From an uncultured Spirochaetia bacterium (lineage in GTDB: Bacteria; Desulfobacterota_D; UBA1144; Nemesobacterales; UBA2774): 64,000 bases of DNA. The stretch is from contig CAZUDM010000004.1 of the NCBI GenBank assembly GCA_964618635.1, positions 10,739 through 74,738 on the forward strand, in the 5' to 3' direction. The translations under genes and the position numbers were made by a program. Of this stretch, positions 546 through 22,972 are shown in pieces. How positions within the stretch are numbered: position 1 is the first letter of the stretch; each line of letters begins with the position of its first letter. The notes below the pieces were generated by a model. It was not told the origin of the DNA, ran no database searches, and was given only the letters and a program-made list of their open reading frames with translations.

Positions 546-629
546 TTTTCCTTCGGGGCAATACGCGGACGCGCTCAGCATCCATCAGCGGTGCAGCCCC
601 TGACCGACGACTGGAGCGCCCTTCTCCGC

Positions 630-3006: not shown

Positions 3007-3007
3007 T

Positions 3008-3655
3008 TCAGAAGAAACTGAACCCTCCGGTGATAAAGGGGTTTGACTTCTTCTCTATTCCTATTGTCGTCGCAGGGCCGTGCCCGGGATAGACCTTGTA
3101 GGAATCGGGGAGCGGCATGAGCTTCGATTTTATCGACCCGACGAGCTCGGCCATCGAGGTGCCGCCTGTAAGGTCGACCCTCCCTACGCTGCCCGCGAAA
3201 AGCGTATCGCCGGAGATCACGACGTCGCCTATGACGAGGCATATGCTGCCCCAAGTGTGCCCCGGTGTGTGCAGGACTTTCGCCCGGAGGCTGCCTATTT
3301 CGACCTCGTCGCCCTCTTCGAAGTAGCCTTCGACCTCGGGGACTTCTACATTGCCGAACTGCGGGAACCTCCTTGCGGCCTCGGGGAGGGCCCTTAAAAC
3401 GGGCACTTCCTCGGGGTGTATATAGAAGCCGACCTCAAGCGCTTTCTTGGCGACTTCGGCGCCGGCGACGTGGTCTATGTGGGTATGTGTATTCACTATT
3501 TTAGTTATTTTCAGCCTCGATTTTTTAACCTCATCGAGTATGTCGTCTATCTGCTCGCCCGGGTCTATGAGTATTCCCTCGTTCGTTTTCTCGTCGCCGA
3601 GTATGTAGCAGTTCGTGAGAAAAATACCGCCCGGTATACATCTTAATATCATATC
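3008..3655 (-). CDS. MBL-fold metallo-hydrolase (glyoxalase II-like)
   Basis: HTHIDH metal-binding motif, plus HTPGHT and GDTLF motifs. The track ORF extends to 3769, but the likely start is MILRCIPGG, so that it does not overlap the upstream acylphosphatase. Confidence 0.75.
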   Translation of the reverse strand, partial: DMILRCIPGGIFLTNCYILGDEKTNEGILIDPGEQIDDILDEVKKSRLKITKIVNTHTHIDHVAGAEVAKKALEVGFYIHPEEVPVLRALPEAARRFPQFGNVEVPEVEGYFEEGDEVEIGSLRAKVLHTPGHTWGSICLVIGDVVISGDTLFAGSVGRVDLTGGTSMAELVGSIKSKLMPLPDSYKVYPGHGPATTIGIEKKSNPFITGGFSFF

Positions 3656-3675
3656 GTTACACTCTTTCTCCGAAG

Positions 3676-3951
3676 TCAGTCTATGGTGAAATGCGTAAAC
3701 TCGCCCGTAGCCCCGGACCTCGATACCTCGACGGCTGCCACCCTCGCCCGGGGCGGCCCTTCGTAGCACCAGCTTACGAATTTTTCGACCATGTCCGTAT
3801 CTCCCTCGGCCACCGCTTCGACGGCGCCGTCGGGGTTGTTCCTCACCCAGCCGGTGAGCCCGAGCTCTTCCGCCTTGCGCCTGGCCTCGGCCCTGAAGAA
3901 TACCCCCTGGACCCTGCCTTTAATGATAACGTGCGCTCTTGCCAATGACAT
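3676..3951 (-). CDS. acyP: Acylphosphatase
   Basis: 91 aa. VQGVFFR...GLTGWVRN...G...EGD acylphosphatase signature. Confidence 0.85.
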   Translation of the reverse strand: MSLARAHVIIKGRVQGVFFRAEARRKAEELGLTGWVRNNPDGAVEAVAEGDTDMVEKFVSWCYEGPPRARVAAVEVSRSGATGEFTHFTID

Positions 3952-4202
3952 GCCTGAGGCTCAGGTTACCAAAACGCCCTCTGGCTGTCAACAACCCACC
4001 CCGGACCGATAAATTTCGACAAACCAGAGACTTAGAATACAAGCCTTAAAGCGTTTCTTTAATAAAAACACAGTACAACACTTTTAAATAAATTTCCAGT
4101 ACCTTTATTAATAAGAGTGGAAAAAATCGGAATGAAAGGGAATCCCCACCCCCTAAAGCTCCTTGTTTGACAGTCAAAAACCGAAGGGGTATTTTGTTAG
4201 CC

Positions 4203-5537
4203 ATGAGTGAATATAGGGCGTGGTTTGCCTGTATAGACGACGAATGCGGCGAAACCTATTCTCTTGACGAGATAATTTACCGCTGCAGGAAGTGCGGAAA
4301 CCTCCTCGAAGTCCAGCACGACATGGAAAAGCTCAAGGAAAAGTCGGCCGGGGAGTGGAAGGAGCTTTTCGACAACCGCTACAGGAAGCAGTCGTGGCCG
4401 CACGGGAGCTCTGTCTGGGGTAAGAAGGAGTGGGTGTGCCCCTACGTCGAGGACGAAAACGTCGTTTCGATGTATGAGGGCGCGACCAACCTTTTCTGGG
4501 CCGAGAGGTTCGGCTCCCAGATAGGCATGGAAGACATCTGGCTCAAGATGTGCGGAAACAGCCATACCGGCTCGTTCAAGGACCTCGGCATGACCGTTCT
4601 CGTCTCCGTCGTAAAGCAGATGATCGCCGACGGGAAGAAGATACCGGCCGTGGCCTGCGCCTCGACCGGGGATACCTCGGCCGCGCTCGCCGCATACTGC
4701 GCCTCCGCCGGGATACCGGCCATCGTGTTCCTGCCTAAGGATAAGGTGTCAGTCGCGCAGCTCGTGCAGCCGATATCGAACGGGGCGCTCGTCCTGTCGC
4801 TCGATACGGACTTCGACGGATGCATGGAGATGGTGCAGAAGGTCTGCACGCGGAACAACATATACCTTGCCAATTCCATAAACTCCCTCAGGATCGAGGG
4901 GCAGAAGACGATAAGCATAGAGCTCTGCCAGCAGTTCGACTGGGAGGTGCCCGACTGGATAGTGATCCCGGGGGGGAACCTCGGGAATATATCGGCCCTC
5001 GGAAAGGGCTACCTCATGATGCGCGAGCTCGGGCTCATAAACAAGCTGCCCCGCCTCGTGTGCGCCCAGGCCGAGCACGCGAACCCGCTTTATCTCAGCT
5101 ATCTTAAAAATTTCGAAGAGTTTCATCCTGTGAAGGCGCAGAAGACCCTCGCCAACGCCATACAGATCGGAAACCCCGTGAGTGTGAACAAGGCCATAAG
5201 GACGCTCAGGGAATTCGACGGGATAGTGGAGCAGGCGAGCGAGCAGGAGCTTGCCGACGCGGCCGCGCTCGTGGATAAGACGGGAACGTTCAACTGCCCC
5301 CACACGGGCGTTGCGCTGGCGGCATTTTTAAAGCTCAAGGAAAGGAAAGTCTTCAAGAATTCGGACCGTGTGGTTATCGTATCCACGGCGCACGGGTTAA
5401 AATTTGTCGAGTTCAAGATCGGCTATCACATGAGCCAGCTCGAAGGGGTTTTCTCGAAGTATGCGAACAGGCCCGTCGAGCTTCCGCCGGATTACGACGC
5501 GATCACCGAGACGATATTCAAATCCATAGAGAAATAA
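4203..5537 (+). CDS. thrC: Threonine synthase (PLP-dependent)
   Basis: [11 protein letters not shown]-lysine motif and overall TS architecture with an N-terminal Cys-rich region (CRKCGN). Start is taken at MSEYRAW; the track ORF begins at 4167. Confidence 0.85.
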
Positions 5538-5580
5538 CCCGATACCTGAGCGGCCGGGTTCGTTTCATTGGGAAGCTTCC

Positions 5581-6468
5581 TCAGCCCCCGAACCTTACCA
5601 CCATATCTACAAGGAAGTCGACGTTGGCGAAGTTGGTGATTTCGCTGCTGCCGAATGGTATCTGGACGCCCGCGCCGAAGCTGAACATCTGGCCGCCTAC
5701 CCTGACGCCGGGGGTGACGTAGGCCCCCGTGACGTTGCTGTCGAACGTCGTCGAAGACGCGAGGAGAAGCTCCAGAAGAAAAGAAGTCGTGAACGGTACG
5801 CCGAAGTCGGGCGTGATGCTGCCCGTCGCCCCGTATTTAAGGATCAGCTCCGTGCTGTCGCCGCCTGTATTGAAGGGACCGCTGTCGGCCTTCTTCGCGT
5901 TGGTCATTATGTCGAAATCGAGGTTGGCCTGAAATGCGAACATGCTCCCGCTCACGGCGAAGACGGCATAGGGGACGAAGGTGTAGGCGTCGTCGGTGAA
6001 ATAGGCGAAGTCGCGGAAGTAGGAGCGCGCGCCGAGCGCCCCGGGGTCGTTGCCTGTCGTCGGGAGTATGGCCTCGAAGCCGACAGTGAAGACGCTGCTC
6101 CCGGAGGCGTGGAGGGCGTACTTGGTTCCGACGCCTATGTTGCCGAAGTCGTAATCGCCGTCGCCGAAGACGCCGCTGGTTACGCCCGCGAAGGGGAATT
6201 TACCGTAAAAACCCCAGTAATTCTCTGATAAGGCAATGTCGAGCCTGAGCTGGTTCATTATGAGCGCGCCGCCGCCGTCAACGGATGCAATTTCGAGATT
6301 GCCCTTCAGGCCCGTCGAGCTGTATGGGTGCTCCAGGAAGAAGGAATATGGGATGTTTCGGACTGTCGCCGCCCCGACCTCTTTTGCCGGAAGCAGGGCC
6401 ACCGAAAAGATTGCGGTCATTATCGAAAGGGCTAGGAGTACCCCGCGGGGGCGGTTTTTCTGTCTCAT
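5581..6468 (-). CDS. Putative outer-membrane beta-barrel protein (MetA/phenol-degradation-like transporter family)
   Basis: Signal peptide (LLALSIMTAIFSVALLPA) and alternating Gly/aromatic-rich beta-strand pattern. It resembles the second OMP at 19286-20329. Confidence 0.5.
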   Translation of the reverse strand: MRQKNRPRGVLLALSIMTAIFSVALLPAKEVGAATVRNIPYSFFLEHPYSSTGLKGNLEIASVDGGGALIMNQLRLDIALSENYWGFYGKFPFAGVTSGVFGDGDYDFGNIGVGTKYALHASGSSVFTVGFEAILPTTGNDPGALGARSYFRDFAYFTDDAYTFVPYAVFAVSGSMFAFQANLDFDIMTNAKKADSGPFNTGGDSTELILKYGATGSITPDFGVPFTTSFLLELLLASSTTFDSNVTGAYVTPGVRVGGQMFSFGAGVQIPFGSSEITNFANVDFLVDMVVRFGG

Positions 6469-6633
6469 CCAGTCGTACCTCCGGCCGTTTTAGGTTTCAT
6501 TTTATAATAACGGTGCAGACATTTCAAGTAATTTCTAAGATTACTCCGCAATGCGCTTTAATTACATAATATATTCTAAATAGTATGTATTTTTACCGGA
6601 TTCCAGCGGATTTTTAAGGAAGTAGGGGAGTAT

Positions 6634-7326
6634 TTGCCCATTCGGACCCGATTGGATAGATTTCTGGGTATGAAAGTCAGAGGCGGGCTCTACATTATTA
6701 CAGACCGGAAGCTTATACCGAGGGAGCGTTTCGCGGAGACTGTCGAGGCGGCAGTCAGGGGCGGCGCGAGCATACTTCAGCTCAGGGAAAAGGACACGCC
6801 GCGGGATGAAATCGTAGAGATCGGCAAAGAGCTTTTAGTTATAACGAGACGTTACGGGATTCCGCTAATTATCAACGATTCCCCCGAGCTTGCAGCCGAG
6901 ATAGGAGCCGACGGGGTGCATCTGGGTGAGGAGGACGCCGGAATCGCGCACGCGCGGAGCGTGCTCGGGGAAGGCGCGATTATAGGGGTGTCGTGCTACG
7001 GGAAGATAGAAAGGGGGCTTGACGCCCTTGCCGGCGGCGCGGATTATGTCGCCTTCGGGACGCCTTATAATACGCCCACGAAGCCCGGAAGAACGCCGAC
7101 ACCCTTTGAGGTTTTGAGGGAGGCCGCGGCCCGGATAAAGGACATCCCGGTATTCGCGATCGGGGGCATAACGGCGGAGAACGCGGCGGACGTTCTCGAA
7201 ACCGGGGTAGACGGCATAGCCGTCATCACGGGCGTTTTCGGCGCGGCCGACCCGGAAAAGTCCGCGCGCGAGCTCGCCGGTATAGCAAATTCCTATCTCG
7301 AAAAGAAAAAGACCGGCCCGATCTAG
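6634..7326 (+). CDS. thiE: Thiamine-phosphate synthase
   Basis: YIITD...LQLREK...GADGVHLG...IGGI motifs. A TTG start at 6634 is preceded by AGGGGAG; the alternative ATG is at 6670. Its stop overlaps the leuS stop. Confidence 0.85.
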
Positions 7327-9809
7327 AGCACTATATTCACGAGCCTCTTCGGAACCACTATGACCTTCCTGGGCTCCTTTCCCGCGAGGAAGCTTTTGAT
7401 TTTCTCGTCGGCGAAAGCGGCCTCTTTCATCTCGTCCTCGCTGGAGTCGGGATTCATAGAAAGCTGGCTCCTGACCTTGCCGTTTACCTGGAGAACTATC
7501 GTTACGGCCGCGCCGGCTACGAGGCTCTCGTCCCACTTGAGCCAGGGCTCGTCGACGAGGGAATCGCCGCAGCCGAGCTCTGCCCAGAGCTCTTCAGTTA
7601 CGTGGGGGGCGATTGGATAGAGAAGCCTTACCATCGCTTCTATAGACTCCCTTAAAACGGAGGTGTCGCCCTCCCCTTCGGGCTCGAAGCGCGACGTGTC
7701 GTTAAGGAGCTCCATCACGGCGGCGATCGCGGTATTGAACTGAAATTTTTCGAGGTCGTCTGTGACCTTTTTTATCGTTTTGTGAACCTTCACGCGTAGC
7801 GCCTTGCCCGGCTCTGAAATGGCGGCGGGGTCGGGCGAGGCTTCGACGTTTTCGATTTTTTCGAACCTGTCGTAAATGAGCCTCCAGAGCCTGCTCAAAA
7901 ATCTGAACGCGCCCTCGATGCCCTCGTCGCTCCAGTCGAGGTCTTTCTGAACAGGGGCCGCGAAGAGCATAAAGACCCTCACAGTATCAGCGCCGAACCT
8001 CGCTATCATGTCGTCCGGGTCGACGACGTTGCCGAGGGACTTCGACATCTTGGCCCCGTCTTTTATGACCATGCCCTGCGTCAGCAGGTTGGAGAAAGGC
8101 TCGTCGAGCCTGCAGAAGCCGAGGTCGCGGAGGGCTTTCGTGAAGAACCTCGCGTAGAGGAGATGAAGTATCGCGTGCTCGATGCCGCCGATGTATTGAT
8201 CGACGGGAAGCCAGTAGTCGACTTCGGACCTGTCGAATATACTCTCGTTGAAATGCGGGGAGGCATACCTCAGAAAATACCACGAGGACTCGACGAAGGT
8301 GTCCATCGTGTCAGTCTCTCGCCGCGCCGCGCCGCCGCACTTCGGGCACGTTGTGTTGACGAAGCTTTCTACCTTCGAAAGCGGCGAGCCGCCCTTACCC
8401 GTGAACTCTATATCGAGAGGGAGCTCGACGGGGAGGTCCTTGTCGGGGACCGGTACGACGCCGCACGTGTCGCAGTAAACCATGGGGATGGGAGCGCCCC
8501 AGTATCTCTGGCGCGAGATGCCCCAGTCTCTCAGCCTGTAATTTATCTGTCTTTTTCCGAAGCCCTTTTCCTCGGCGTATTCGATTATCTTTTGCTTGCC
8601 GTCCTCCGAAGGGAGACCCGTGAACTGTGCGGAGTTGATCATGACGCCCGGCTCTTCGTATGCGGCTGTCATGTCTTCGGCTTTAAGATTCGCCCCTTCG
8701 GGCTCTATGACGGGGACTATGGGTATGCCGTACTCCGCGGCGAACTCGAAATCGCGCTGGTCGTGCGCCGGGACGGACATGATGATGCCTGTACCGTAGG
8801 CGTGGAGGACGAAGTTGGCAATGTAGATCGGCACGCGGGCGCCGTTGAACGGGTTGATTGCGTAGGCACCCGTGAAGACGCCTTCCTTTTTTGCGCCTTC
8901 GGCGATCCTTTCGAGGCTCGTCTGCCGTATGACCCTTTTTATGAATTCCTGCGCCTCTTTTTCCTCTGGCTTACCTTTTATCAGCGCCGCCGCGAGCGGG
9001 TGCTCGGGGGCTATGGCCATGTATGTTACGCCGAAGACGGTGTCGGGGCGCGTCGTAAAAATGCTGAGGCCCTTTTCTCCGCCCGCGGGCTCTTCGAGAG
9101 GGAATTCGATTTCGGCCCCGGTGCTTTTCCCGATCCAGTTCTTCTGCATTGCGAGGACTCTTTCGGGCCAGCCGTCTTTCAGCTTTTCGGCGAATTCCAG
9201 GAGCTCGTCGGAGTATTCCGTGGTTTTAAAGAACCAGCCTTCCATCTCTTTCTGGACGACCTCGGAGCCGCAGCGCCAGCAGTAGCCGTCCTCTACCTGC
9301 TCGTTTGCGAGGACTGTTTCGCACGAGGGGCACCAGTTGACCGTCGTCGATTTCCTGTATGCGAGCCCTTTCTCGTACATGCGCGTGAAGACCATCTGCT
9401 CCCATTTATAGTAGGACGGGTCGCAGGTGGCGATTTCGCGTGTCCAGTCGTAACTGTAGCCGAGCTTTTTGAGCTGTGCCTTCATCTGGGCGATGTTCTC
9501 GTAGGTCCACTTGGCGGGATGGACGCCCCTTTCGATGGCGGCGTTTTCCGCGGGGAGGCCGAATGCGTCCCAGCCGATGGGATGGAGGACGTTGTAGCCC
9601 ATCGTCCTCTTGAAGCGGGCGATGACGTCGCCGATGGTGTAGTTCCGGACGTGGCCCATGTGGATGCGGCCCGAGGGATAGGGGAACATTTCGAGGACGT
9701 AGTACTTGTCCTTCCCCTTTTCGGCGTGGACTTCGTAGAGCCGCTTTTCGGCCCATTCGTCCTGGTGTTTTTTCTCTATTTCGTGTGGCTTATAGCTTTC
9801 TCTCATCAC
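7323..9809 (-). CDS. leuS: Leucine--tRNA ligase
   Basis: 828 aa. HMGH and KMSKS class-I motifs and a LeuS-specific editing domain. Confidence 0.95.
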
Positions 9810-10135
9810 CCGCTCGCTGTCCGGAAGTTCCTATTAGGATAGAATTATTTACCATAATCACAAGCGAAGGACAAAACGATGAGTGATGGGAGGCGGATTC
9901 CGCAATTAGGGCATCCGAAATTGAGAGGGCGGAAATTCAATCTGCATAATGCACAGCGCGACATTTGAATTAAATGTCCCAGCCACATCCGAAAACAGGA
10001 TTTGGTATAGAGTTTCCTGTCGAAGTTTGAGTATGGATTTTTCCCGTCAAACCGTGTTTTATATTAAGGTATCCCCTTTATCCTGTCCTCTACAGCAAGG
10101 CGTGAGAGGGGAATAGAAATCGGGATATATACAGT

Positions 10136-10960
10136 ATGAGCAGAGAGCGCGAATTAAAAGAGATAGCCGGGGATTTGAGGCGGTACTATGAATTCCAGAA
10201 AGATATGGGGGTGAAGAGGGTATTCAGGGAGAGAGGAGAGCGTGCCGCCGAAGAGAATACAGAAAGGAAGTATCCCGGATGGGAGGAAACCATGACGCCG
10301 AAAAAAACAACCGCCAGAGAAGACAGGGGAGCCGCACCGAAAGAGGAGGTAATCAACGTCCCGGAGCAGATGGGGATGTTCGACTCGTCCACGAAGATAA
10401 TGCCGCTCGAAGAGATAAAGAAGGAGCTTCTGGAGAAGATGTCTTCGAGGCTCTTCGAGGGAAGCAGGCAGATCGTTTTCGGCGAGGGGAACCCGAAGGC
10501 GAGGCTCGTATTCGTCGGCGAGGCCCCGGGACGGGACGAAGATATTCAGGGGAGGCCATTCGTCGGAAGGGCCGGGCAGCTCTTAAACAAAATAATCGAA
10601 GCCATGGGGCTTAAGAGGGAGGATGTATATATCTCCAACATCGTGAAGTCGAGGCCGCCCGACAACAGGACTCCTACCCCGGAAGAGATGGCGGAGTGGG
10701 AGCCGTTCCTGTTCCAGGAGTTGAGATCGATAAACCCGGAGGTGGTGGTGTGCCTTGGAAGCACGGCGGCACAGTCGATCCTTAAGACGAAGGCTAGCCT
10801 CGGGAGCCTACGCGGAAAATTTCACCGTTACGGAAAGTTCAAAGTCATGGTAACTTATCATCCAGCCGCGCTTCTCCGGAACCCGAACTTCAAGAAGCCC
10901 CTTTGGGAAGACATGCAGCAGGTCATGAAGGAGCTTGGAATTTCCAGACCGGGCGATTAG
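10136..10960 (+). CDS. udg: Uracil-DNA glycosylase, family 4, with an N-terminal ~90-aa extension
   Basis: GEGNPKARLVFVGEAPG...GRPFVGRAG motifs of family-4 UDG. The stop codon lies inside the tRNA acceptor stem. Confidence 0.85.
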   Translation: MSRERELKEIAGDLRRYYEFQKDMGVKRVFRERGERAAEENTERKYPGWEETMTPKKTTAREDRGAAPKEEVINVPEQMGMFDSSTKIMPLEEIKKELLEKMSSRLFEGSRQIVFGEGNPKARLVFVGEAPGRDEDIQGRPFVGRAGQLLNKIIEAMGLKREDVYISNIVKSRPPDNRTPTPEEMAEWEPFLFQELRSINPEVVVCLGSTAAQSILKTKASLGSLRGKFHRYGKFKVMVTYHPAALLRNPNFKKPLWEDMQQVMKELGISRPGD

Positions 10961-11026
10961 CTCAGTGGATAGAGCGCAGGCCTCCGAAGCCTGAGGTCGG
11001 GGGTTCGAATCCCTCATCGCCCGCCA
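10951..11026 (+). tRNA. tRNA-Arg (anticodon CCG)
   Basis: GGGCGAT acceptor 5' pairing with ATCGCCC; D arm GCTCAGTGGATAGAGC; anticodon stem CAGGC/GCCTG with loop CTCCGAA; T arm GGGGGTTCGAATCCCTC; discriminator G and encoded CCA. Confidence 0.9.
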
Positions 11027-11190
11027 TTGGTATTCAGAGATCTTTTTATCATGCCTATAATCATATTTCAGTATCCTTGTTAACTTTATCTAATCGGCAT
11101 ATAATTAATTTACTTGTTCAATGATGCGCAGTTGGGTACAAGCATTATTGTCCGGCATACATAAATAGCGTTAGATACAGGAGGTTCAAA

Positions 11191-11433
11191 ATGAGCGAAT
11201 TAGTTTCGAAGAAGTACAACAAAGTTCATACAACTTCAGCAATAGTTCAGATATTGGACTTGACTAGAACGGGTAGCTCTATAGAGCTTGAGATGTCTTC
11301 CAAAGGAGAAAAGCTGGGAACGCTGGTTATAGGGCGGGGATCATTTAAATGGTATCCAAAGCACTCGAAAAAGAACCATGTTCGGTTGGATTGGACAACT
11401 TTTGCCGAAATCATGAAAGGATACGGCAAATGA
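11191..11433 (+). CDS. Hypothetical 80-aa protein on the AT-rich island segment
   Basis: Strong RBS ACAGGAGG 7 nt upstream of the ATG. Low-GC codon usage matches the island. No recognisable domain. Confidence 0.4.
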   Translation: MSELVSKKYNKVHTTSAIVQILDLTRTGSSIELEMSSKGEKLGTLVIGRGSFKWYPKHSKKNHVRLDWTTFAEIMKGYGK

Positions 11434-11480
11434 ATGTGAAGCTGTAAAATTCACGAGTGGGTTTTAATGAACCAGCATCA

Positions 11481-11522
11481 AAGCCTGAGGTCGTGGATTC
11501 GAACCCCCATCGCCCGCCATGG
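11481..11522 (+). repeat. att-like imperfect direct repeat of the tRNA-Arg 3' half (copy 2)
   Basis: AAGCCTGAGGTCGTGGATTCGAACCCCCATCGCCCGCCATGG, against tRNA 10986-11029 AAGCCTGAGGTCGGGGGTTCGAATCCCTCATCGCCCGCCATTGG. Confidence 0.8.
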
Positions 11523-11742
11523 TTTAACACCAATTTAGTGTTGATTGGTTGAAATTTTCCATCTTAAACACTATAATGGGCTACACTAGATTCTGTAAAT
11601 TCCTTTTCAATCAAACAGGTTACAACAATTTTGGGAAATCATAGAAATAGATAAAGGAAGTTATTATGAATGCTTATTAGCCAGAACAATTAGACCAAAT
11701 TGACTTAATTAAACGAGTTTTAAGTTGAGCTAAGGAAAAGTC

Positions 11743-14490
11743 ATGAAACTCACCGATAAGCAATGGGAAGCTATCAATCACTCTCGAGGCAATCTTCAGC
11801 TCATTGCATGTGCCGGTTCCGGTAAAACTGAGGTAGTTGCTCGTCGAGTCGTTACCTTGTTGACACCAGCAAATAAACATTCCGTTCTCCCCAGAAACAT
11901 CGTAGCATTCACCTTCACTGAAAAGGCAGCAGCTGAGCTGAAAGAACGGATTTACGAGAGATGCCGTGAAATATTAGGTGATGTGAATGGACTTGCTGAA
12001 ATGTATGTAGGTACCATTCACGGATTCTGCCTGGAACTACTCAAGAGTGAAGTACCCAAATATAGCAAGTTCAATGTGCTTAACGAAGTTCAACAAATAC
12101 TATTTATAAATAGACTATCTTCAAGAAGTGGACTTACTACATCAACAGATTTATCTGGAAAACAACTCAAACGTTATACGGATACAGGTATCTATTCTAG
12201 CGCATTATCAATCCTTCGCGAAGCTTCTGTCGATAACGAAGCTCTCGAGGGATGCTCAGTAATGGAAGGAATGGAAGCATACAGATCCCTTTTAGATGAC
12301 CGCAGCTATCTTGATTATTCTGCTATCCTGGATGAAGCAGTCGAGGCTCTATACTCAGACAATGATCTTAGAAATAGACTAGGTGAACGAGTTAAGCATG
12401 TAATAGTTGATGAATATCAAGATGTAAACCCAATACAAGAGTCAGTTGTCCGTGTTCTGCACGATTTAGGAGCAAATCTTTGCGTTGTAGGTGATGATGA
12501 TCAAGTTCTATACCAGTGGAGAGGAAGCGATGTTCAAAATATTCTTACCTTTGAAGAACGCTATGCACCCGTCAAACAGGTTAAGTTGGAAGGTAACTTT
12601 CGATCAAGCGAGGGTATAGTCGAAACTGCAAGGGCATTTATCGAACAAAATTCAGAGCGTCTCCCCAAACAAATGAAACCAGAGGGTGCTCAGAATTATG
12701 AATCTGGCGATATTGTAGCCCTTGGTTTCGACAATCCGGACGAGGAAGCCCAATATATAGCCCAGACATGTAAATCACTCTTAGGTGTAGCTGTAAAAGA
12801 ATCCGGGGGTAAAGAACGAGGTGTTGCATGGTCGGATATGGCAATTTTGCTTAGGAGCGTCGCACATAATGCGAAACCTATTACGAAAGCACTTGATGTA
12901 GCGAATATCCCATATCTTGTCGTTGGCATGAACGAGTTATTCGCAACACCCGAAGCCGCAGCGGCACGTGAACTATTTCACTTCATGGCTGGGCGCATTG
13001 ACGAAAAATCTGTTTTGAAGGCATGGGAGGCAGCTCAGACAGGTTCGTCACGTTCCGAACTTCGGAAAGCAATTCAAGCGGCGGCAAAAAGTCGAGATGA
13101 TATGGCTAAGGGTGGGGAGCGGTTTTCTATTTATTCTCCCCAGCGTGTATTTCTTGATTTTTTAGAAAATGCAAATATTCGAGAAGAAAAAGTTCCGGGT
13201 GATTCCAGTAAGTGTGAAATACTTTTCTACAACCTAGGCAAGTTCAGCCAAGTAATTTCGGACTTTGAAGCAATACATTTCTTGTCCGAACCTATTGAAA
13301 AATACAAAACATTTGCGAGCTTTCTCGAGCATCATGCCGTGAAATCATACCCAGAAGGGTGGCAGTCTAACCAATACGCTAATCCAAATGCGGTGCGAAT
13401 TATGACAGTGCATCAAGCTAAAGGCATGCAGTGGCCGGTTGTATTTATTCCGGCCCTATTGAAGAATCGGTTTCCATCCAAAAAACATGGTGGACCAAGT
13501 GTTTGGCAACTCATTCCAAAAACGGCAGTTGAGGGCCAAGAGCGTTATGAAGGTAGTCTCGAGGATGAGCGGAGGCTATTCTATGTTGCCATGACTAGGG
13601 CTCAGAAATTTCTGCATATGACATGGGCTCCAGTACTCGATAACCAACTATATAAGAAGGTTTCTGAGTTTTGGGAAAATGTACTCTCTTCAAAATACGT
13701 TAAACGTCGCCAGCAAGATTACTCAAATAGAAAACGGCTTAAAGCCACTCCAAAGGCGGGGATAGCAAATGTAACACTAACTTTCTCAGACATGAAATAC
13801 TTCTTTGAATGTCCGTATCAGTTTAAGTTGCGCATTCTATATGGGTTCAATGCCCCCATACACGAAGCATTGGGTTACGGTAAGTCTTTACATGATGCAC
13901 TGGCAGAGGTACACACAAGGGTAATCAATGGAGAAAAGGTTGACGAATCGAACGTTCCAGAGCTGATAAAAACACATCTGCATACTCCATATGCGTACGC
14001 AAAATTAAAAGAAAAACTTGAGATGGCAGCCAAGAAGGTCGTGACGGACTACATTGTAGACAACAAGAAAGAATTCAACAATATAGAATTCTCAGAAAAA
14101 CTCATCGAAGTTAACATGGGAGATGGTGTATCAGTTGTTGGCCGTATCGATTTGGTACGACGAAAAGATACTGACGAAACCAGCATAGTCGATCTCAAAT
14201 CAACTGATCGGGCACAGGCAGAAGATGTAACCGAAACTCAACTCCACATCTATGCACTTGGTTATAATGAACTCACGGGGCGTAATGCAGACTTTGTCGA
14301 GATATACAATCTTGATGAACGCAAAAGGAAACCACGTTCGGTTGACGAGGGATTCTTGAAGGAAGTGAAGACCAAGGTAAAAGGCGCAGCCGAAACCCTC
14401 CGCAACGGCAAGTTGAACCCATCACCTTCTCTAAAAAAGTGTACAAGTTGCGATTACCAACGTATATGTAGTGCTGCCAAATTAAAATGA
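11743..14490 (+). CDS. UvrD/PcrA-like SF1 helicase fused to a C-terminal Cas4/AddB-type PD-(D/E)XK nuclease with a 4-Cys cluster
   Basis: Helicase motifs: AGSGKT (Walker A), DEYQD, GDDDQ, VHQAKGMQWPVVF, YVAMTRA. C-terminal nuclease motifs: FFECPYQF, GRIDLV, VDLKS, QLHIYALGY, and CTSCDYQRIC (C-X2-C-X5-C). GC is about 45% against ~60% in the flanks. RBS AAGGAAAAG. Confidence 0.85.
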   Translation: MKLTDKQWEAINHSRGNLQLIACAGSGKTEVVARRVVTLLTPANKHSVLPRNIVAFTFTEKAAAELKERIYERCREILGDVNGLAEMYVGTIHGFCLELLKSEVPKYSKFNVLNEVQQILFINRLSSRSGLTTSTDLSGKQLKRYTDTGIYSSALSILREASVDNEALEGCSVMEGMEAYRSLLDDRSYLDYSAILDEAVEALYSDNDLRNRLGERVKHVIVDEYQDVNPIQESVVRVLHDLGANLCVVGDDDQVLYQWRGSDVQNILTFEERYAPVKQVKLEGNFRSSEGIVETARAFIEQNSERLPKQMKPEGAQNYESGDIVALGFDNPDEEAQYIAQTCKSLLGVAVKESGGKERGVAWSDMAILLRSVAHNAKPITKALDVANIPYLVVGMNELFATPEAAAARELFHFMAGRIDEKSVLKAWEAAQTGSSRSELRKAIQAAAKSRDDMAKGGERFSIYSPQRVFLDFLENANIREEKVPGDSSKCEILFYNLGKFSQVISDFEAIHFLSEPIEKYKTFASFLEHHAVKSYPEGWQSNQYANPNAVRIMTVHQAKGMQWPVVFIPALLKNRFPSKKHGGPSVWQLIPKTAVEGQERYEGSLEDERRLFYVAMTRAQKFLHMTWAPVLDNQLYKKVSEFWENVLSSKYVKRRQQDYSNRKRLKATPKAGIANVTLTFSDMKYFFECPYQFKLRILYGFNAPIHEALGYGKSLHDALAEVHTRVINGEKVDESNVPELIKTHLHTPYAYAKLKEKLEMAAKKVVTDYIVDNKKEFNNIEFSEKLIEVNMGDGVSVVGRIDLVRRKDTDETSIVDLKSTDRAQAEDVTETQLHIYALGYNELTGRNADFVEIYNLDERKRKPRSVDEGFLKEVKTKVKGAAETLRNGKLNPSPSLKKCTSCDYQRICSAAKLK

Positions 14491-14758
14491 GGGAGATTTA
14501 TGACGACTAAAAGTAAACCAAAATAATCCGAAATCCGAAAAGAAAGTACACATTCTCTTTAAGAATCGCCAAATCCGTCATATTCCATAGGCCGATTCCT
14601 ATGGCTTAAGCACGCCATATTCTCCATCTAATTGTTTCATGCAGTTTTATGAAGACCCGTTCCGCCCTGGAAATAGGGCAAGCATTACACACTACGGCTG
14701 CTAAAAAGGAATGTGGATATGGAGAGAATGATTTATACTTTATATCAGGGTGAGAACA

Positions 14759-14905
14759 ATGAGTACAAAAAAAGCTTTTCTCACATACGTAGGCAATAGA
14801 AAATGGAGAAAAGTTAGAAGGTCGAAAACTCCCGCCGGAAGAGATTATCTGAGATACGCCGGGAACAGGAAATGGAAAAGAGTCAGCTCTGTCCATGACC
14901 GATAA
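14759..14905 (+). CDS. Putative 48-aa basic micro-protein with internal tandem repeat
   Basis: MSTKKAFLTYVGNRKWRKVRRSKTPAGRDYLRYAGNRKWKRVSSVHDR. Repeat Y(V/A)GNRKW(R/K)(K/R)V occurs twice. GGGTGAG RBS-like element upstream. A 96-aa antisense ORF (14606-14896) is the alternative. Confidence 0.3.
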   Translation: MSTKKAFLTYVGNRKWRKVRRSKTPAGRDYLRYAGNRKWKRVSSVHDR

Positions 14906-15015
14906 GACCGGAGTTTAAACCGGATTTTCAAATACGGCCTTTCGTCGGGATAGCCTGGAAGCGCTGTTTCCATGATTCTAACTCAAACCTCGCCTGACAA
15001 AAGGGGAGAGGTATA

Positions 15016-15040
15016 GGTTCGAATCCCCATCGCCCGCAAT
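15016..15040 (+). repeat. att-like degenerate copy of the tRNA 3' end (copy 3)
   Basis: GGTTCGAATCCCCATCGCCCGCAAT, preceded by GCCTGA. It matches the T-arm and acceptor 3' strand of tRNA-Arg. Confidence 0.6.
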
Positions 15041-15112
15041 TTGTTCACGCCTTTTACCATTCTTATATCAGACGACACGGCTGGAAAATCAACACTGCAG
15101 AAAGAGCAGACG

Positions 15113-15547
15113 TCAGACAATTCCGTGTTCTTTCAAGAGCGTCTGCTCATCGCCCGAGACCCAGCCGAAAACTTTCGGTCCCTCATCCAGCTTCTGCACA
15201 AAGTAGTGAACATCGAAATCTATATTTGTGTCCGGCCGATCCTTCCGAGCATAAGTTGCCGTCCAAGCAACATGGGCGACACAATGATGTTCATCTATCG
15301 ATGAGATACGGACACTACGTATCCGCATCTCTTTAGTTCCAATCGCCCGATAGCGCGCGTATCCCTGCACCATCACCTGCTTGAGTTTATCGTTGTTCTT
15401 CCCCGTCATAACTCCGGCAGGCGAGGCTGCGATGAATTCCGTCGCGTACAGCGAGGCGACTTGATTTATATTCACGTCGCCACCGAGAGACTGGTTGAAT
15501 AAGCGTTCGTATCGCTCGAATAGTTTCCTTACGACAGCATCCATCAT
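15113..15547 (-). CDS. NTF2-like/SnoaL-like small protein
   Basis: 144 aa. Composition and length are typical of ketosteroid-isomerase/NTF2-fold proteins. It lies between att-like copies 3 and 4. Confidence 0.45.
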   Translation of the reverse strand: MMDAVVRKLFERYERLFNQSLGGDVNINQVASLYATEFIAASPAGVMTGKNNDKLKQVMVQGYARYRAIGTKEMRIRSVRISSIDEHHCVAHVAWTATYARKDRPDTNIDFDVHYFVQKLDEGPKVFGWVSGDEQTLLKEHGIV

Positions 15548-15634
15548 TCTCTTTTCCCCGATGTTTCGAAGTATATATTATAGACTAAAGACACGAATTA
15601 TACCGGCTGTTTGCTGTGTAGCCCCGGTAGTGAG

Positions 15635-15668
15635 ACGTGGGGTTCGAATCCCCCCATCGCCCGGCATT
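15635..15668 (+). repeat. att-like imperfect copy of the tRNA-Arg 3' end (copy 4), distal island boundary
   Basis: GACGTGGGGTTCGAATCCCCCCATCGCCCGGCATT, against tRNA GGTCGGGGGTTCGAATCCCTCATCGCCCGCCATT. Confidence 0.75.
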
Positions 15669-15737
15669 ATAACCACCTCTAATTTCTTGGCTTTTTTATA
15701 ATTCTAACTATTAACTGATGCGCCTGCATCCAAATGC

Positions 15738-16088
15738 ATGGTTTGTGTGTCTAACTATCATCAGGAGAGAAGAGTGAAGACAATAATCTCGTTAATATTT
15801 ATCATATTCGCCGCGGCGTCCTTTTCGTTTGCGGAGAGCGGTGACGGGCCGGATTCCGTGATTTTGGCGAAAGCCGATACAGAAATTCCGGCGGTCCGGA
15901 ATGTTATCACTGACAGAGAAGGCCCCGGCGATATTTCTTTATTGACCGGGAGCGGAGAGAATTCCGAGCTGACTTACGAATCACCTTCGCTAAATGTCGA
16001 AGACCTTCCCCTCGTTATGTCAAGCACGGATAGGAAAACCGTGAGTATCGTACTGCCGCCGTTCCTCTATTTCAAACAGCAGTTTTAG
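15738..16088 (+). CDS. Hypothetical secreted protein
   Basis: N-terminal signal peptide (IISLIFIIFAAASFSFA), Ser/Gly/Pro-rich, C-terminal ...YFKQQF. Confidence 0.45.
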   Translation: MVCVSNYHQERRVKTIISLIFIIFAAASFSFAESGDGPDSVILAKADTEIPAVRNVITDREGPGDISLLTGSGENSELTYESPSLNVEDLPLVMSSTDRKTVSIVLPPFLYFKQQF

Positions 16089-16434
16089 CAAACAAGTCTC
16101 ATCTTGTGTATATCGGCTGTGTATTCACATCCTCAGGCGAGGGAAAACCACGCGTCAGGTTAGGGCGCGATTTGTAAATGAGGGCTGGATGAAACCCTTT
16201 ATCCGGCGAGCTGCATCAGCCCGCCCCCCTTACATACCGGCAGTTTAGTCAGGGATCGAAACTCCCTCATACCACCGCCTCTTTTTAAATAATCACGCCT
16301 CTTTGTTTTTAATTTCCAACTGTTTTAGAATATCCGGAGACATATTTTATATACAGGGCCAAGGGGCAGCGGCGCGGGGCTTGTACATGCAAGCGACGCC
16401 GCGAATGGACTTATCAGAGAGAGGGAGGATAGAT

Positions 16435-17385
16435 ATGGAGATCAAGGATCTCGTTAAAAGGGCCCGGAAATTCGCGGAGCCGTTTCGCATTACGAAAGGC
16501 AAGAGCTTCCGGCTTAAGGACATCGATCCCGGGGATACGCTTCATTTACAGTCGGAGGACAAGCCGCGTGCGAAAGAGGTGCTTGCAAACGGCGTGCAGC
16601 TGCTCGCCGAGCTGCAGGATATGCTCTACGCCCAGGACCGCTGGGCGGTGCTCATAATACTCCAAGCGATGGACGCCGCCGGAAAGGACGGCACGATAAA
16701 GCACATAATGTCGGGCGTCAATCCGCAGGGCTGCCAGGTGCATTCCTTCAAGGCTCCGTCGTCGGAAGAGCTCGACCATGACTATCTATGGCGGTGTATG
16801 AAACGCCTGCCGAACCGCGGCAACATGGGCATCTTCAACCGCTCTTATTACGAGGAGACGCTGGTCGTGCGGGTCCACCAGGAATTTCTGGCAAAGCAGA
16901 AATTACCTCCCGAGCTTGTCACGAAGAATATCTGGAACGAGCGCTTTGAAGACATACGCAATTTCGAGAGCTACCTTACGCGGAATGGAATAGTCGTGAG
17001 GAAGTTTTTTCTTCACGTTTCCAAAGAAGAGCAGGAGAAGCGTTTTATCGAACGCATCGAGAACCCGGAAAAGAACTGGAAGTTTTCCGCGAGCGATATA
17101 AAAGAGCGCGCTTACTGGGACGACTACATGAAAGCCTACGAGGACATGATCCGGAACACCGCGACAAGTTACGCTCCGTGGTATGTCGTACCGGCGGACA
17201 ACAAGTGGTTTACGCGCCTGGTGGTCGCCGCGGCGATCATAGACGCGCTGGCCTCTCTCGACCTCCACTATCCGAAGGTGGACAAGCAAAAGCTTGAGGA
17301 ATTAGCCGAGGCCAGAAAGACGCTTTTAAACGAAAAGGGAAACGGGAAGGGCTCAAAGAAAGCTTCTAAAAAGGGAGGCGCATAA
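16435..17385 (+). CDS. ppk2: Polyphosphate kinase 2 (PPK2) family nucleotide phosphotransferase
   Basis: Walker A LQAMDAAGKDGTIK, PPK2 lid (YLWRCMKRLP...GIFNRSYYE), and N-terminal FRLKDIDPGDT motif. Start is taken at MEIK, which has AGGGAGGA-5nt-ATG. The track ORF begins at 16303. Confidence 0.85.
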   Translation: MEIKDLVKRARKFAEPFRITKGKSFRLKDIDPGDTLHLQSEDKPRAKEVLANGVQLLAELQDMLYAQDRWAVLIILQAMDAAGKDGTIKHIMSGVNPQGCQVHSFKAPSSEELDHDYLWRCMKRLPNRGNMGIFNRSYYEETLVVRVHQEFLAKQKLPPELVTKNIWNERFEDIRNFESYLTRNGIVVRKFFLHVSKEEQEKRFIERIENPEKNWKFSASDIKERAYWDDYMKAYEDMIRNTATSYAPWYVVPADNKWFTRLVVAAAIIDALASLDLHYPKVDKQKLEELAEARKTLLNEKGNGKGSKKASKKGGA

Positions 17386-17879
17386 TGTCTGATGATACAG
17401 GGAGTATGGGCTTTCCTGTCGACAGGGAAGCACAGGAAATGAAATCCATAGTCCTGGAGCACAAGGTGTTTTGGGCCACCCTGTCCATAGAGCTGCCCGA
17501 CGAGGAGGGACATCGTGTTAAAGTGGGCATGTCCGTCGCCCTTGTCGGGACGGACCCGGATAAAAATTTCCCCGGGGACGAAGCCGGAAAATCCGCGACA
17601 TTCGAGAGGCTCATGAAGCTGGCTAACTGGCTCACCTCGGAGCCTGCGCCCGGGGTCAGGTTCGACGTGAGAAGGCACGATAACGTCGTCTTCTACCTGC
17701 CTGACGACCTTAGAACGAAGAGGAATAATTATGTTGTCATAATAAGGATACTTCACGGCGAGCAGTTCGATTCACCGATGAACGAGACGCAGCTGCAAAC
17801 GTTTCAGAACATACAAAAGAGGCTGAAAGACATCGGTTCGCCGCAGGAGCACTGGAAAGAACCGAAGACAACGCTATGA
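17385..17879 (+). CDS. Hypothetical protein, translationally coupled to PPK2
   Basis: 164 aa. Its ATG overlaps the PPK2 stop (ATAATG). No recognisable domain. Confidence 0.5.
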   Translation: MSDDTGSMGFPVDREAQEMKSIVLEHKVFWATLSIELPDEEGHRVKVGMSVALVGTDPDKNFPGDEAGKSATFERLMKLANWLTSEPAPGVRFDVRRHDNVVFYLPDDLRTKRNNYVVIIRILHGEQFDSPMNETQLQTFQNIQKRLKDIGSPQEHWKEPKTTL

Positions 17880-18057
17880 CAATTTTCACCGCCACTACTA
17901 ATTCGGCTGACAGCTAACCACCGCTTGACCCCGAAATCTTCGAAAGTATTGCATATGCAAGTCCTTTTATATCCGTACGGCAAAAAGGGTTTGCTTTTTC
18001 CGTCGTATGTTTTATAAAGGTCAATAAGCCACACACAATATCAAAGGAGGTATGCCA

Positions 18058-18432
18058 ATGTCTACTGTAGGCAAAGTACAGATCACTATCGTGTTCATCT
18101 GCCCGCCGGAGCACGTCGCCGAGGGGGAGAGGATATTCGCGAGCCACGCGAAATGGATGGAGGCGACTCATCACAAGTCGGGCGAGCTCGCGATGCTGCG
18201 ATACAACATTATTAAAGGACCGGAGCTCGAAAACCCGTTCGACCCGACGTCGAAGCCGACGGGGAATACGATGTTCGTCCTGGACGAGCTTTACGAGAAC
18301 CAGGCCGGCCTCGACGATCACTGGAAGAGGGCGCCCGTGGAGTGGAGCGACATAGGCGCATTCGTGGAGTGGGGAGGGAAGTGCAAGGTGATCACGGCGC
18401 ACAACGGGGTCGCTATTCAGGGACTCTGGTAA
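18058..18432 (+). CDS. Hypothetical small protein, possibly ABM/Dabb-like alpha+beta barrel
   Basis: 124 aa. RBS AAGGAGG lies 7 nt upstream of the second ATG. Fold assignment is a guess from length and composition. Confidence 0.45.
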   Translation: MSTVGKVQITIVFICPPEHVAEGERIFASHAKWMEATHHKSGELAMLRYNIIKGPELENPFDPTSKPTGNTMFVLDELYENQAGLDDHWKRAPVEWSDIGAFVEWGGKCKVITAHNGVAIQGLW

Positions 18433-19285
18433 TAATCGAAGCACTGCTAGTCCCGGCTTTTCCGATATATGAAGGGCCGGGACAATTTCATCCCGGTATC
18501 GGCACTCTGCGAGTAAAGCGCTCCGATGCCCTGGATTTTAGTCTTCTATAATTACGCATCCAGAGCCGGGTCCGGGACCTGAGCGCGACAGCGATAGTTG
18601 CAGCTACTACTAATTCCGATAGAGCGCTCCAAACGTATCGGACTTGACAACTGCCGCCTGAAATCTAGATTTATACCCTGCCATGCGGCGGAAAGCACAC
18701 CTTATAGCCTGCTCCGTCCTGTTCCTCGCACTGTCGTTGAATCTGGCGCTTTACACCTCTCAGAAGTATGCGCCGCCCAGGGCCGAGTCGCTCTCTTATT
18801 CGGTTATGGACTGTCCCTCGCACCGGGGTCAGGACCATTTATCCGCTATCGCCAGTGTCATTACGGGACGAAACACCAAAGAGGGCGTCGAGAAGCACTG
18901 TTTTTGCTTAAGCTGCTGCAGTCAACGAACGAGCCTGTTCATTCCGGCTGCAGCCTGTTCCATCGTAAGAGAGCAATTTACGGTCTATCTGCCGGCGGCA
19001 GTCGAATTTCATCATTCAGAAGAGTTCTATTCCAGTCTCCCCATCCGTTCTCCTCCCGCAATTTAATCGCGCCGCACGTTTGTGAAAAGTGCGGCGGGTA
19101 TCCAAGCAGCGGAAAGGAGGGGAAACCCTTTTTCCCGACACAGAGGCACAGCTAATCCGGCTTCGGCAGCGGAATAGTGCGCCGGTACGCCTGCCTGCGT
19201 GCCGGCGCCCGCGGCGCCGAAGGTAATCATCGGTCTGTCTGTGCGAGCTCACGCAAAGGTTCAATTATTGGAGGTCGTTATAAAA

Positions 19286-20329
19286 ATGCGAAAGAATTCT
19301 CTCGATAACAGGGTTATATCTTTTAAATATGCGGTCTTGCCGATCCTGATACTGGCTGTGTTTTCCGTAAACGCATACGGCCAGAAATGGAGCGGCGCGA
19401 GGCCGGACGGGCATGCACCCGTAGGCGTAATGGGGGACCACACACACCACGCGGGGAGATTCATGCTTTCTTACCGGTACATGTACATGAGCATGGACGG
19501 CATAAGAACGGGGACGAACAATGTGAGCAGCCGGCAAGTCCTCAAGGACTACATGGTCGCGCCCCTCGAAATGGACATGCAGATGCACATGCTCGGGTTG
19601 ATGTACGCAGCCACGGATTATCTCTCCATCATGGGCATGGTGCCGTACATAAAAAAATCCATGAACCACCTGACAAGGATGGGGGAGCGCTTTAAAACCG
19701 AATCCGAGGGTTTCGGGGACATCAAGCTGACGGGGCTCGTAAAGGTTTTCGACAATTACGCCCAGCGAATACACCTGAGCGCCGGGATGAGCTTCCCGAC
19801 GGGCTCGATCGACGAGAAAGACGATACGCCCATGGGCCCTCATCTGCTTTCCTACCCCATGCAGCTGGGCTCGGGGACATTCGATCTGCTGCCGGGGATT
19901 ACGTACCTCGGCCAGCACAGTAACGTTTCCTGGGGCGCTCAGGTCAGCGGGGTCATAAGACTCGGGGAGAACGACAGGGACTACAGGCTCGGCAACAGGC
20001 TCGACGCGACGGCCTGGGGGGCTTACGACTGGTTTAACTGGGTGAGCACGTCGGCCAGAATGGACTGGCAGTCGTGGGGGAATGTCCACGGGGCCGACCC
20101 TGCGCTCGATCCCGCCATGATGCCCGGCGCCAATCCGCACAATCAGGGCGGCAACCGCCTCGACCTGCTTTTCGGAATGAATTTTTATGTGCCCGAAGGC
20201 CCGAAGCTTATAAAAGGACAGAGACTGGCCGTGGAGTTCGGGTTCCCGATCTATCAGGACCTGGACGGGCCGCAGCTCGAAACCGACTGGGTGCTCTGGC
20301 TCGGATGGCAATACGGCTGGATGTTCTGA
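19286..20329 (+). CDS. Outer-membrane beta-barrel protein (MetA/phenol-degradation-like transporter family), Met/His-rich loops
   Basis: Signal peptide (ILILAVFSVNAYG) and C-terminal ...WQYGWMF aromatic terminus. There are multiple HxxH/M-rich segments (GDHTHHAGRFMLSYRYMYMSMDG, MDMQMHMLGLMY). Confidence 0.6.
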   Translation: MRKNSLDNRVISFKYAVLPILILAVFSVNAYGQKWSGARPDGHAPVGVMGDHTHHAGRFMLSYRYMYMSMDGIRTGTNNVSSRQVLKDYMVAPLEMDMQMHMLGLMYAATDYLSIMGMVPYIKKSMNHLTRMGERFKTESEGFGDIKLTGLVKVFDNYAQRIHLSAGMSFPTGSIDEKDDTPMGPHLLSYPMQLGSGTFDLLPGITYLGQHSNVSWGAQVSGVIRLGENDRDYRLGNRLDATAWGAYDWFNWVSTSARMDWQSWGNVHGADPALDPAMMPGANPHNQGGNRLDLLFGMNFYVPEGPKLIKGQRLAVEFGFPIYQDLDGPQLETDWVLWLGWQYGWMF

Positions 20330-20386
20330 CGGCAGTGAAGTAGCACCGGCCGGCACAATTCGGACTATCGAATTTACCGGCCGGTC

Positions 20387-22966: not shown

Positions 22967-22972
22967 AGTGCA

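Follow-up and report, generated by a model that had tools for sequence, protein, structure and literature searches.

A tRNA-Arg(CCG) gene followed by a tandem array of probable integrase-less remnants of integrative elements in an uncultured bacterium

The stretch of 64,000 nucleotides (nt) analyzed here, called the window below, spans positions 10,739 to 74,738 of contig CAZUDM010000004.1 (GenBank assembly GCA_964618635.1), which was deposited under an uncultured Spirochaetia bacterium and is placed by GTDB in Desulfobacterota_D. It holds an intact tRNA-Arg(CCG) gene on the plus strand (10951-11026; found by ARAGORN and by the Rfam tRNA model at 73 bits, E 5.5e-15), which is followed by three imperfect copies of its own 3' part, set among short modules that differ from one another in gene content. 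The conserved left flank is the gene of a family-4 uracil-DNA glycosylase (UDG; 10136-10960, plus strand; Pfam UDG, 8.8e-41), whose coding sequence overlaps the tRNA 5' end by 10 nt (10951-10960), an overlap kept in 14 of the 14 related loci examined (L001 to L004 and L088 to L097; L numbers label related genome or metagenome contigs compared with the window). The conserved right flank is a gene for a signal-peptide (secreted) protein (15738-16088, plus strand), with homologs at the same place, after the last tRNA copy, in L002, L004, L097, and L102. Our results make it very probable that this tRNA gene is an integration hotspot, behind which four remnants of site-specific integrative elements, decayed and without an integrase, lie in tandem. 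The tRNA gene would be the integration target, that is, the original attachment site (attB) and now the attL of the array.

The tRNA gene itself gave no sign of damage, and Rfam at permissive thresholds matched nothing beyond it between 9.5 and 17 kb. It equals the tRNA of L001 and L002 apart from one C>T change in the T stem at 11014, which gives a G.U pair. Since the stem reads CCCTC in the window and CCCCC in relatives and in all copies, we considered whether it might mark a tRNA 3' end derived from an incoming attP; this was rejected, as L098, which carries the same island at 99.7% identity, has CCCCC, and the change is thus a strain-level single-nucleotide polymorphism.

Local alignment to the tRNA plus 10 nt defined the three copies, all of which lie on the plus strand. 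Copy 1 (11480-11522) is a 40-nt imperfect copy that runs from the anticodon-loop AA to the CCA, plus TGG; its alignment (11481-11523) covers tRNA positions 37-81 with three mismatches and two single-base gaps, and over two stretches, of 13 nt (AAGCCTGAGGTCG) and 12 nt (CATCGCCCGCCA), it is identical to the tRNA without a break. Copy 2 (15016-15039), of 24 nt, runs from the T arm to the tRNA 3' end and has a possible degenerate 5' extension; it aligns over 15016-15044 with tRNA positions 52-81, with two mismatches and one gap. Copy 3 (15621-15668) is the outermost displaced tRNA 3' fragment; beyond its solid core (15638-15666), a weaker alignment with three gaps reaches 15621 (tRNA position 30). 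A 25-nt core, GGTTCGAATCCCCCATCGCCCGCCA, sought on both strands with up to four edits, matched only the tRNA and these three copies in 64 kb, all on the plus strand and within 4.7 kb, versus a mean of 0.03 matches in 30 block-wise shuffles, and CCATCGCCCG occurs exactly three times versus 0.30 expected. An intact tRNA gene with three imperfect 3' copies, as read from the letters alone in a preliminary description of this DNA, is therefore borne out by ARAGORN, Rfam, and the alignments; the accompanying statement that the copies begin just 3' of the anticodon holds clearly for copy 1 only. The acceptor 3' strand of tRNA-Arg(CCG), ATCGCCCG, is present in every copy, and the copies are therefore not pseudogenes of another isotype. 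We also considered two integrase classes, one of an anticodon-loop type (copy 1) and one of a T-loop type (copies 2 and 3); this idea was weakened because copy 3 aligns, with gaps, to the anticodon region and because copy 2 may have a degenerate extension.

The copies delimit segments of 0.45, 3.5, and 0.6 kb, the sizes given before, but the number of modules is four rather than three, since the 3.5-kb segment consists of a helicase cassette and a minicassette of 0.47 kb. Module A (11027-11479, plus strand) contains an 80-amino-acid (aa) open reading frame (ORF; 11191-11433) and is probably the attR-proximal remainder of an integrase-bearing element. Module B (11523-14547, plus strand) is a strain-variable slot that holds a gene for a 915-aa helicase-nuclease (11743-14490). 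Module C' (14548-15015, plus strand) is an old, conserved minicassette with a candidate structured leader (approximately 14615-14755) and a gene for a 48-aa protein (14759-14905). Module D (15040-15620) carries an NTF2-like gene on the minus strand (15113-15547; Pfam DUF6841, 2.4e-6). Pfam thus agrees with the cargo described earlier, namely, the 80-aa ORF, a helicase-nuclease, and an NTF2-like gene. The markedly lower G+C content that had been claimed for the segments applies to the first 3.9 kb, where the G+C fraction is 0.38 (11027-11479), 0.417 (11520-14547), and 0.432 (14548-15015); the NTF2-like segment is only moderately low (0.485 over 15040-15637), compared with flanks of 0.556 (upstream core) and 0.56 (downstream). 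The secreted-protein gene beyond copy 3 is also low in G+C content, at 0.475.

No integrase or recombinase was detected in the 64-kb window by tblastn with an integrase of the clade's own and with XerD (best E 0.75), in agreement with the preliminary description; matches on L088 and L090 validated the Escherichia coli XerD query. Pfam searches of the ORFs between 17.9 and 30 kb likewise gave no recombinase, the matches being LigD, Ku, NnrS, Ada, and DUF938 only. The genes from 30 to 64 kb, read by eye from their translations, we take to be housekeeping genes (TypA, MnmG, RpoD, Prs, L25, Pth, H+-PPase, S6/S18/L9, HtrA, and ClpS/ClpA).

Comparison with strains of the same species showed where the array varies. 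L102, L103, and L104, found through a homolog of the 80-aa protein, are 95.9% identical to the window over 2807-11029 and 98.9% identical over 14548-23441 at the nucleotide level. Between these blocks, two stretches of L102 are not homologous to the window: 11030-11178 is replaced by 1.76 kb, and 11525-14547, with the helicase-nuclease gene, by 1.0 kb with an unrelated 283-aa gene. The breakpoints lie at 11029, 11524, and 14548. In all three contigs, the last 27 codons (351-377) of a tyrosine integrase stand directly after the tRNA (92.6% identity, E 5e-10), followed by a 337-aa ParB-like gene, a 103-aa HNH gene, an allele of the 80-aa ORF (81% identical to that of the window), and a decayed copy 1. 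In L102, this counterpart of copy 1 (10304-10331) has decayed independently, and a truncated att, GTGTTCGAATCCCCTCCA, immediately precedes C' at the junction between the B slot and C'. From C' through copy 2, D, and copy 3, the two configurations are syntenic and 98.9% identical, with module D 98.6% identical in L102 and L103. Both configurations occur in one sequencing run, SRR26809238, from which L098 is of the window type and L104 of the L102 type.

The integrase whose end is preserved in L102 was found complete in a closely related genome. In L088, whose UDG is 89% identical to that of the window, an intact 9.5-kb element (1204-10749, 35-48% G+C) lies at the same tRNA gene. It begins with a 377-aa tyrosine integrase (PF00589, 1.4e-30) encoded on the opposite strand, with its stop codon 10 nt from the tRNA, and continues with an excisionase-type helix-turn-helix protein (HTH_17), a DnaB_N+AAA_25 replication protein, a 266-aa protein without a family match, a Type ISP-like methyltransferase, and a DUF1883-TIR protein. 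The far end of the element is a perfect 48- to 52-nt copy of the tRNA stretch that starts in the anticodon loop and stops shortly after the CCA (attR). In L090, an element with a 75%-identical integrase occupies this position and is likewise bounded by a perfect tRNA-3' repeat, and L089 has the same integrase-proximal sequence up to its contig end. About 20 nt of the same element end, on the integrase side of the L088 type, are kept in L002. The L088 integrase has no relatives among IMG/VR viral contigs and scores 50 bits against integron-integrase cut-offs of 265 bits. Beyond the L088 attR (10750-11214), the sequence is still low in G+C content, and a Cys-rich, restriction-enzyme-like ORF starts there before the locus ends; this suggests a second island in tandem.

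Content at the site also changes across lineages. The closest UDG-anchored genomes, metagenome-assembled genomes (MAGs) of Candidatus Dadabacteria/Thermodesulfobacteriota, are L001 (90%), L002 (89%), and L003 and L004 (66-67%); ten further metagenome loci (L088 to L097) were retrieved with a DNA pattern spanning the UDG-tRNA junction, which is a very specific DNA anchor for pulling this locus from metagenomes. Cargo other than that of the window, bounded by perfect or near-perfect tRNA-3' repeats, is present in L004, L093, L095, and L097. In L004, the tRNA is followed by 1.8 kb, a perfect 43-nt repeat, and then the secreted-protein gene; L093 has 0.55 kb with a 153-aa ORF between perfect repeats, and L095 has 3.85 kb encoding Upx (PADLOC, 5e-178). 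The position of copy 3 is taken by a perfect copy before the secreted-protein gene in L004 (12637-12679) and L097 (6290-6317). The slot after copy 2 is occupied by the NTF2-like gene in the window and L102; L002 has 8.6 kb of other genes there, and L097 has a 1.6-kb ion-channel-like gene that it shares with L002. Orthologs of copy 2, decayed to varying degrees, were found in L002, L094, L097, L102, and L108, and C' and copy 2 are common across species. L001 has a block of AraC, cupin, and SDR genes at the site, and L003 has none of the array. Defense-type cargo at the site in relatives comprises Upx (5e-178), TIR, Type ISP, HNH, and a ParB-like protein. It is exactly at the repeat boundaries that the content of relatives differs. 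In L095, the Upx gene, apparently split into ORFs of 193 and 1048 aa (500-4212), is the sole cargo between the tRNA and the tRNA-3' repeat, with no integrase-sized ORF among the ORFs listed for that locus.

A window without an integrase, an intact element at the same tRNA gene in L088, and an integrase stub in L102 together lead us to read the array as a stack of decayed integrative elements. The suggestion of stacked remnants of successive integrations is thereby upheld, with the intact elements of L088 and L090, the L102 stub, and the changes of content at repeat boundaries as its support. Elements of the L088 type, with a tyrosine integrase, an excisionase-type HTH protein, a replication gene, and cargo, would integrate by recombination between their attP and the 3' part of the tRNA gene. 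The incoming element would supply a new tRNA 3' end, so that the tRNA remains intact, and the old 3' end would come to lie beyond the element's distal edge, where it forms a direct repeat (attR). Each arrival at the intact tRNA would then drive earlier elements outward. Integrase and replication modules, being of no use to the host, would be lost by deletion; small cargo cassettes would stay, and the internal att copies would drift. The likely order of arrival, from the oldest and outermost, would be D with copy 3, C' with copy 2, B, and A with copy 1. The element behind A was probably one of the L088/L102 kind and would have lost its integrase and all else up to a point shortly before the 80-aa ORF. 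Both the loss of the integrase by deletion in this strain and the order of events are what we infer from these comparisons. As judged by sequence comparison, the outer modules C' and D are ancient and vertically inherited. Modules A and B, next to the tRNA, are recent and are not the same in strains that occur together. In its present form, the array is unable to move by itself.

Several points weigh against this history of repeated integration and decay. In the window, no att copy is recognizable at the junction where the helicase cassette meets C' (about 14520-14547), and the helicase module is therefore not cleanly att-bounded there. An att remnant at this junction was considered and dismissed, the only resemblance, 'CCGAAATCC', being not significant. 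No empty site, in which the tRNA would be followed directly by the secreted-protein gene, was found among the compared relatives. An integrase may exist elsewhere in the genome, since 64 kb were covered, and the action of an L088-type integrase on these att sites is a proposal read from sequence. Modules A and B could also have been swapped between strains by homologous recombination in the tRNA and C' flanks; the 86% nucleotide identity of the A alleles of the window and L102, versus 96-99% in the flanks, fits either separate integration or homologous recombination.

An alternative is that the cassettes are still mobile and that the locus works as an exchange platform, similar to cis-mobilizable elements (CIMEs) or loosely to an integron, with an integrase supplied in trans or in cis by an arriving L088-type element. 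The same slot has two fillings, the helicase-nuclease and the 283-aa gene, that co-occur in SRR26809238; the breakpoints between the window and L102 coincide with att boundaries; the tRNA and copy 1 keep their 13-nt and 12-nt identical stretches; active-looking elements with an integrase and excisionase exist in close relatives; several lineages have an att copy on either side of C'; and mobilization of CIMEs by accretion has been documented elsewhere (PMC5704250). However, the internal copies are decayed (three mismatches and two gaps in copy 1, and a mere 24 nt in copy 2), the B|C' junction of the window has no att, and the array genes are not co-oriented. C', copy 2, D, and copy 3 are syntenic in L102 at the 98.9% identity given above, and C' keeps its place across species, which argues for vertical inheritance and not shuffling. 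Neither circular junctions nor cassettes at other loci were seen, and the helicase homologs elsewhere lie in islands of unrelated types. We therefore regard continued mobility as unlikely. A more specific form of this idea, in which the att copies form an integron-like platform where one-gene defense cassettes, and likewise C', are captured, exchanged, and kept through L088-type integrases in trans, and in which C' has been domesticated, possibly for recombination control or regulation of defense, is similarly doubtful.

It is far less probable that the repeats arose by local duplication and decay of the tRNA, as pseudogenes, or by chance, with the AT-rich DNA being ordinary strain-variable sequence. 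The internal copies are imperfect and the window has no adjacent integrase, which would fit such an origin, but no copy holds any of the tRNA 5' half, and all of them end at or next to the CCA, the very point at which genomes begin to differ in content. In relatives, an integrase-bearing element at this tRNA gene lies between a perfect attL and attR; L088, L090, and L102 contradict the pseudogene origin, and chance is opposed by the 0.03 matches expected. A chimera of assembly or binning, in which a low-GC foreign contig was joined to a Dadabacteria-like core at a repeated tRNA fragment, can practically be dismissed: assemblies do break at or in the tRNA (the end of L096 lies 10 nt beyond it, and the starts of L081 and L098 fall in its 3' half), but L081 and L098, independent Logan contigs from different runs, reproduce the order of tRNA 3' half, A, copy 1, helicase, and C' at 100% and 99.7% identity, respectively. 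In addition, L102 and L103 each cover the complete array, from LeuRS through to Ku, and have the outer modules of the window.

The array of decayed remnants resembles known systems to differing degrees. In the tDNA islands described by Islander (PMC4383910), an element with a tyrosine integrase splits and regenerates the tRNA gene, and the displaced 3' fragment marks its distal end. The window has the corresponding intact tRNA-Arg(CCG) with three same-strand 3' fragments at module ends, L088 is the complete version with the integrase beside the tRNA, and content varies among relatives with breakpoints at att sites (L102, L002, L094, L097, L004, and L088). The window differs in that its modules lack an integrase, measure 0.45 to 3 kb with one gene each, and are separated by decayed fragments, with one junction lacking a fragment. 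The accretion model of CIMEs (Pavlovic 2004; Bellanger 2011; reviewed in PMC5704250) proposes that an element integrates, that its genes for integration and transfer are lost but its att sites are kept, and that a further element then integrates at the regenerated site, which yields tandem arrays. The same three-step history would apply here: the window is without integration or transfer genes, and the 27-codon stub of L102 corresponds to the deletion step. In contrast to CIMEs, no conjugation or mobilization genes were seen in the related intact element, and mobilization in cis is doubtful here because the att sites are imperfect.

In the ssrA islands of Dehalococcoides (PMC3146451), tandem low-GC islands with strain-specific content follow a single-copy small-RNA gene and are bounded by repeats of its 3' end; some have a gene-proximal integration module and others do not. 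The present locus shares the tandem low-GC modules behind one small-RNA gene, the 3'-end repeats, and the strain specificity. It differs in target (tRNA versus transfer-messenger RNA), recombinase (tyrosine versus serine, CcrB-like), and cargo (defense type versus rdhA), and the window modules are much smaller. Tycheposons of Prochlorococcus (bioRxiv 10.1101/2020.12.28.424599) target tRNA genes and comprise an integrase, a replication module, and cargo; successive integrations drive older elements into the island, the islands contain partial tRNAs and fragmented integrases, and populations are heterogeneous in element content. L088 and L102 match the architecture of tycheposons and may or may not belong to that family; the host phylum differs from that of Prochlorococcus. 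With integrons, the locus shares only the arrangement of cassettes, mostly of one gene each, in a row with recombination sites between them; the window has no IntI, attI, or Pc and no tyrosine recombinase, its sites are direct tRNA fragments and not attC hairpins, and its NTF2-like gene lies on the opposite strand.

In the helicase-nuclease of module B, Pfam identifies UvrD-helicase, UvrD_C, and PDDEXK_1/Cas4 domains, so the 915-aa protein is a UvrD-type superfamily 1 helicase fused to a Cas4-like PD-(D/E)XK nuclease. It has thousands of full-length homologs at 65-80% identity, in Caballeronia, Sorangium, Gemmatimonadota, Tectomicrobia, and Thermoanaerobaculia. The presence of homologs in many phyla indicates wide horizontal spread of this single-gene module. 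In L082, the homolog has as neighbors a giant SACS/NOV_C protein, an SLFN-like helicase, type I restriction-modification genes, and a resolvase; in L083 and L084, DUF932 and NUDIX genes; and in L085 to L087, a conjugative region with a TrwC relaxase, a TraG coupling protein, and ArdC, the homolog there being a 75%-identical protein of Caballeronia terrestris (Betaproteobacteria). The neighborhoods sampled are mobile or defense islands. The protein is absent from phage records, and among plasmids there are only three distant matches. These neighborhoods suggest that the helicase-nuclease, which is a standalone gene inside the island, is probably an anti-phage gene or a gene directed against mobile genetic elements.

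Other identities for this protein did not hold up. PADLOC v2 gave only generic UvrD-domain models (GajB and DRT) and no specific defense family; an assignment to Gabija or DRT was rejected, since these matches cover the generic UvrD part only. In Gabija, the UvrD-like helicase GajB is encoded beside GajA, an OLD-family ATPase-TOPRIM nuclease; the window protein is not Gabija because it has no GajA-like neighbor and a PD-(D/E)XK domain of its own. A housekeeping identity (PcrA, UvrD, Rep, RecB, or AddA) was rejected as well, the best score being 280 bits against the 911-bit NCBIfam cut-off for PcrA, with the others far below theirs. With many homologs in islands and no specific family in PADLOC v2, the helicase-nuclease is a reasonable candidate for a defense assay.

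The 80-aa ORF of module A has no match in Pfam, NCBIfam, or PADLOC and is not part of the L088 element. It belongs to an unannotated family of 178 representative homologs (clusters) at E<=1e-3, nearly all of which are standalone proteins of under approximately 200 aa with a conserved motif, KLGTL-IG-GS; one 45%-identical homolog (P0126) has an ordinary metabolic neighborhood. AlphaFold predicts four to five strands and a C-terminal helix with low confidence (pLDDT 65). Foldseek searches against the PDB with the AlphaFold models of this protein and of the 48-aa protein of C' returned nothing below an E of 0.1.

The C' minicassette appears to have a longer history at the site than its neighbors A and B. 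Its nucleotide identity across lineages (78-85%) is about equal to that of LeuRS and UDG. C' is therefore an old module that has been inherited vertically and is probably under selection. It lies directly after the tRNA CCA in L094 and is separated from it by approximately 60 nt of unrelated sequence in L002; in L097 and L108 to L110, it has att-like copies on both sides. The 48-aa protein is very basic, with the internal repeat Y-x-G-N-R-K-W-[RK]-[KR]-V occurring twice, and its reading frame is preserved across lineages through compensating indels; the family is small (six clusters; AlphaFold pLDDT 71). Neither the leader nor the protein matches Rfam or Pfam. The leader (about 140 nt, 14615-14755) is predicted to fold into a closing helix and three internal hairpins, followed by a last hairpin in which the Shine-Dalgarno sequence AGGGUGAG is paired. 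In an alignment of seven sequences, 93% of cells are paired versus 42-54% with slid partners, 10 pairs show double changes versus 1 to 4 in slid controls, and none of 500 shuffles attained the observed score. The fold is nevertheless only a lead, because the structure came from the same alignment and the sample is small. A homologous small-gene cassette is present in a more distant genome, L115 (also L114), where it lies between 48-nt direct repeats (1-48 and 479-526) that are 83% identical, 478 nt apart, and match the 3' end of C' (CTGACAAAWGGGGAG...) and not the tRNA; these repeats may be tandem copies of the cassette or a different att.

Downstream of the array, a block that runs from PPK2 through LigD-Ku, of nonhomologous end joining (window 16303-23845), is present in L102, and at least its start is present in L002. 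The L003/L004 lineage lacks the block and has in its place a standalone gene for a LigD phosphoesterase domain, and the variable region may therefore exceed the att-marked array.

As a whole, the locus is a further example of the well-known tRNA-anchored, defense-rich island hotspot; it is conceptually ordinary and leaves current concepts unchanged. The att copies and the UDG-tRNA junction are useful as anchors for mining accessory and defense genes from metagenomes of this clade. For the organisms concerned, an uncultured and little-studied lineage (Dadabacteria/Thermodesulfobacteriota MAGs), the comparison documents tRNA-Arg(CCG) as a strain-variable hotspot with defense-type genes (helicase-nuclease, Upx, TIR, Type ISP, and HNH/ParB-like) and the full life cycle of a tRNA island at one site, from the intact element of L088 through the integrase stub of L102 to the integrase-less cassettes of the window.

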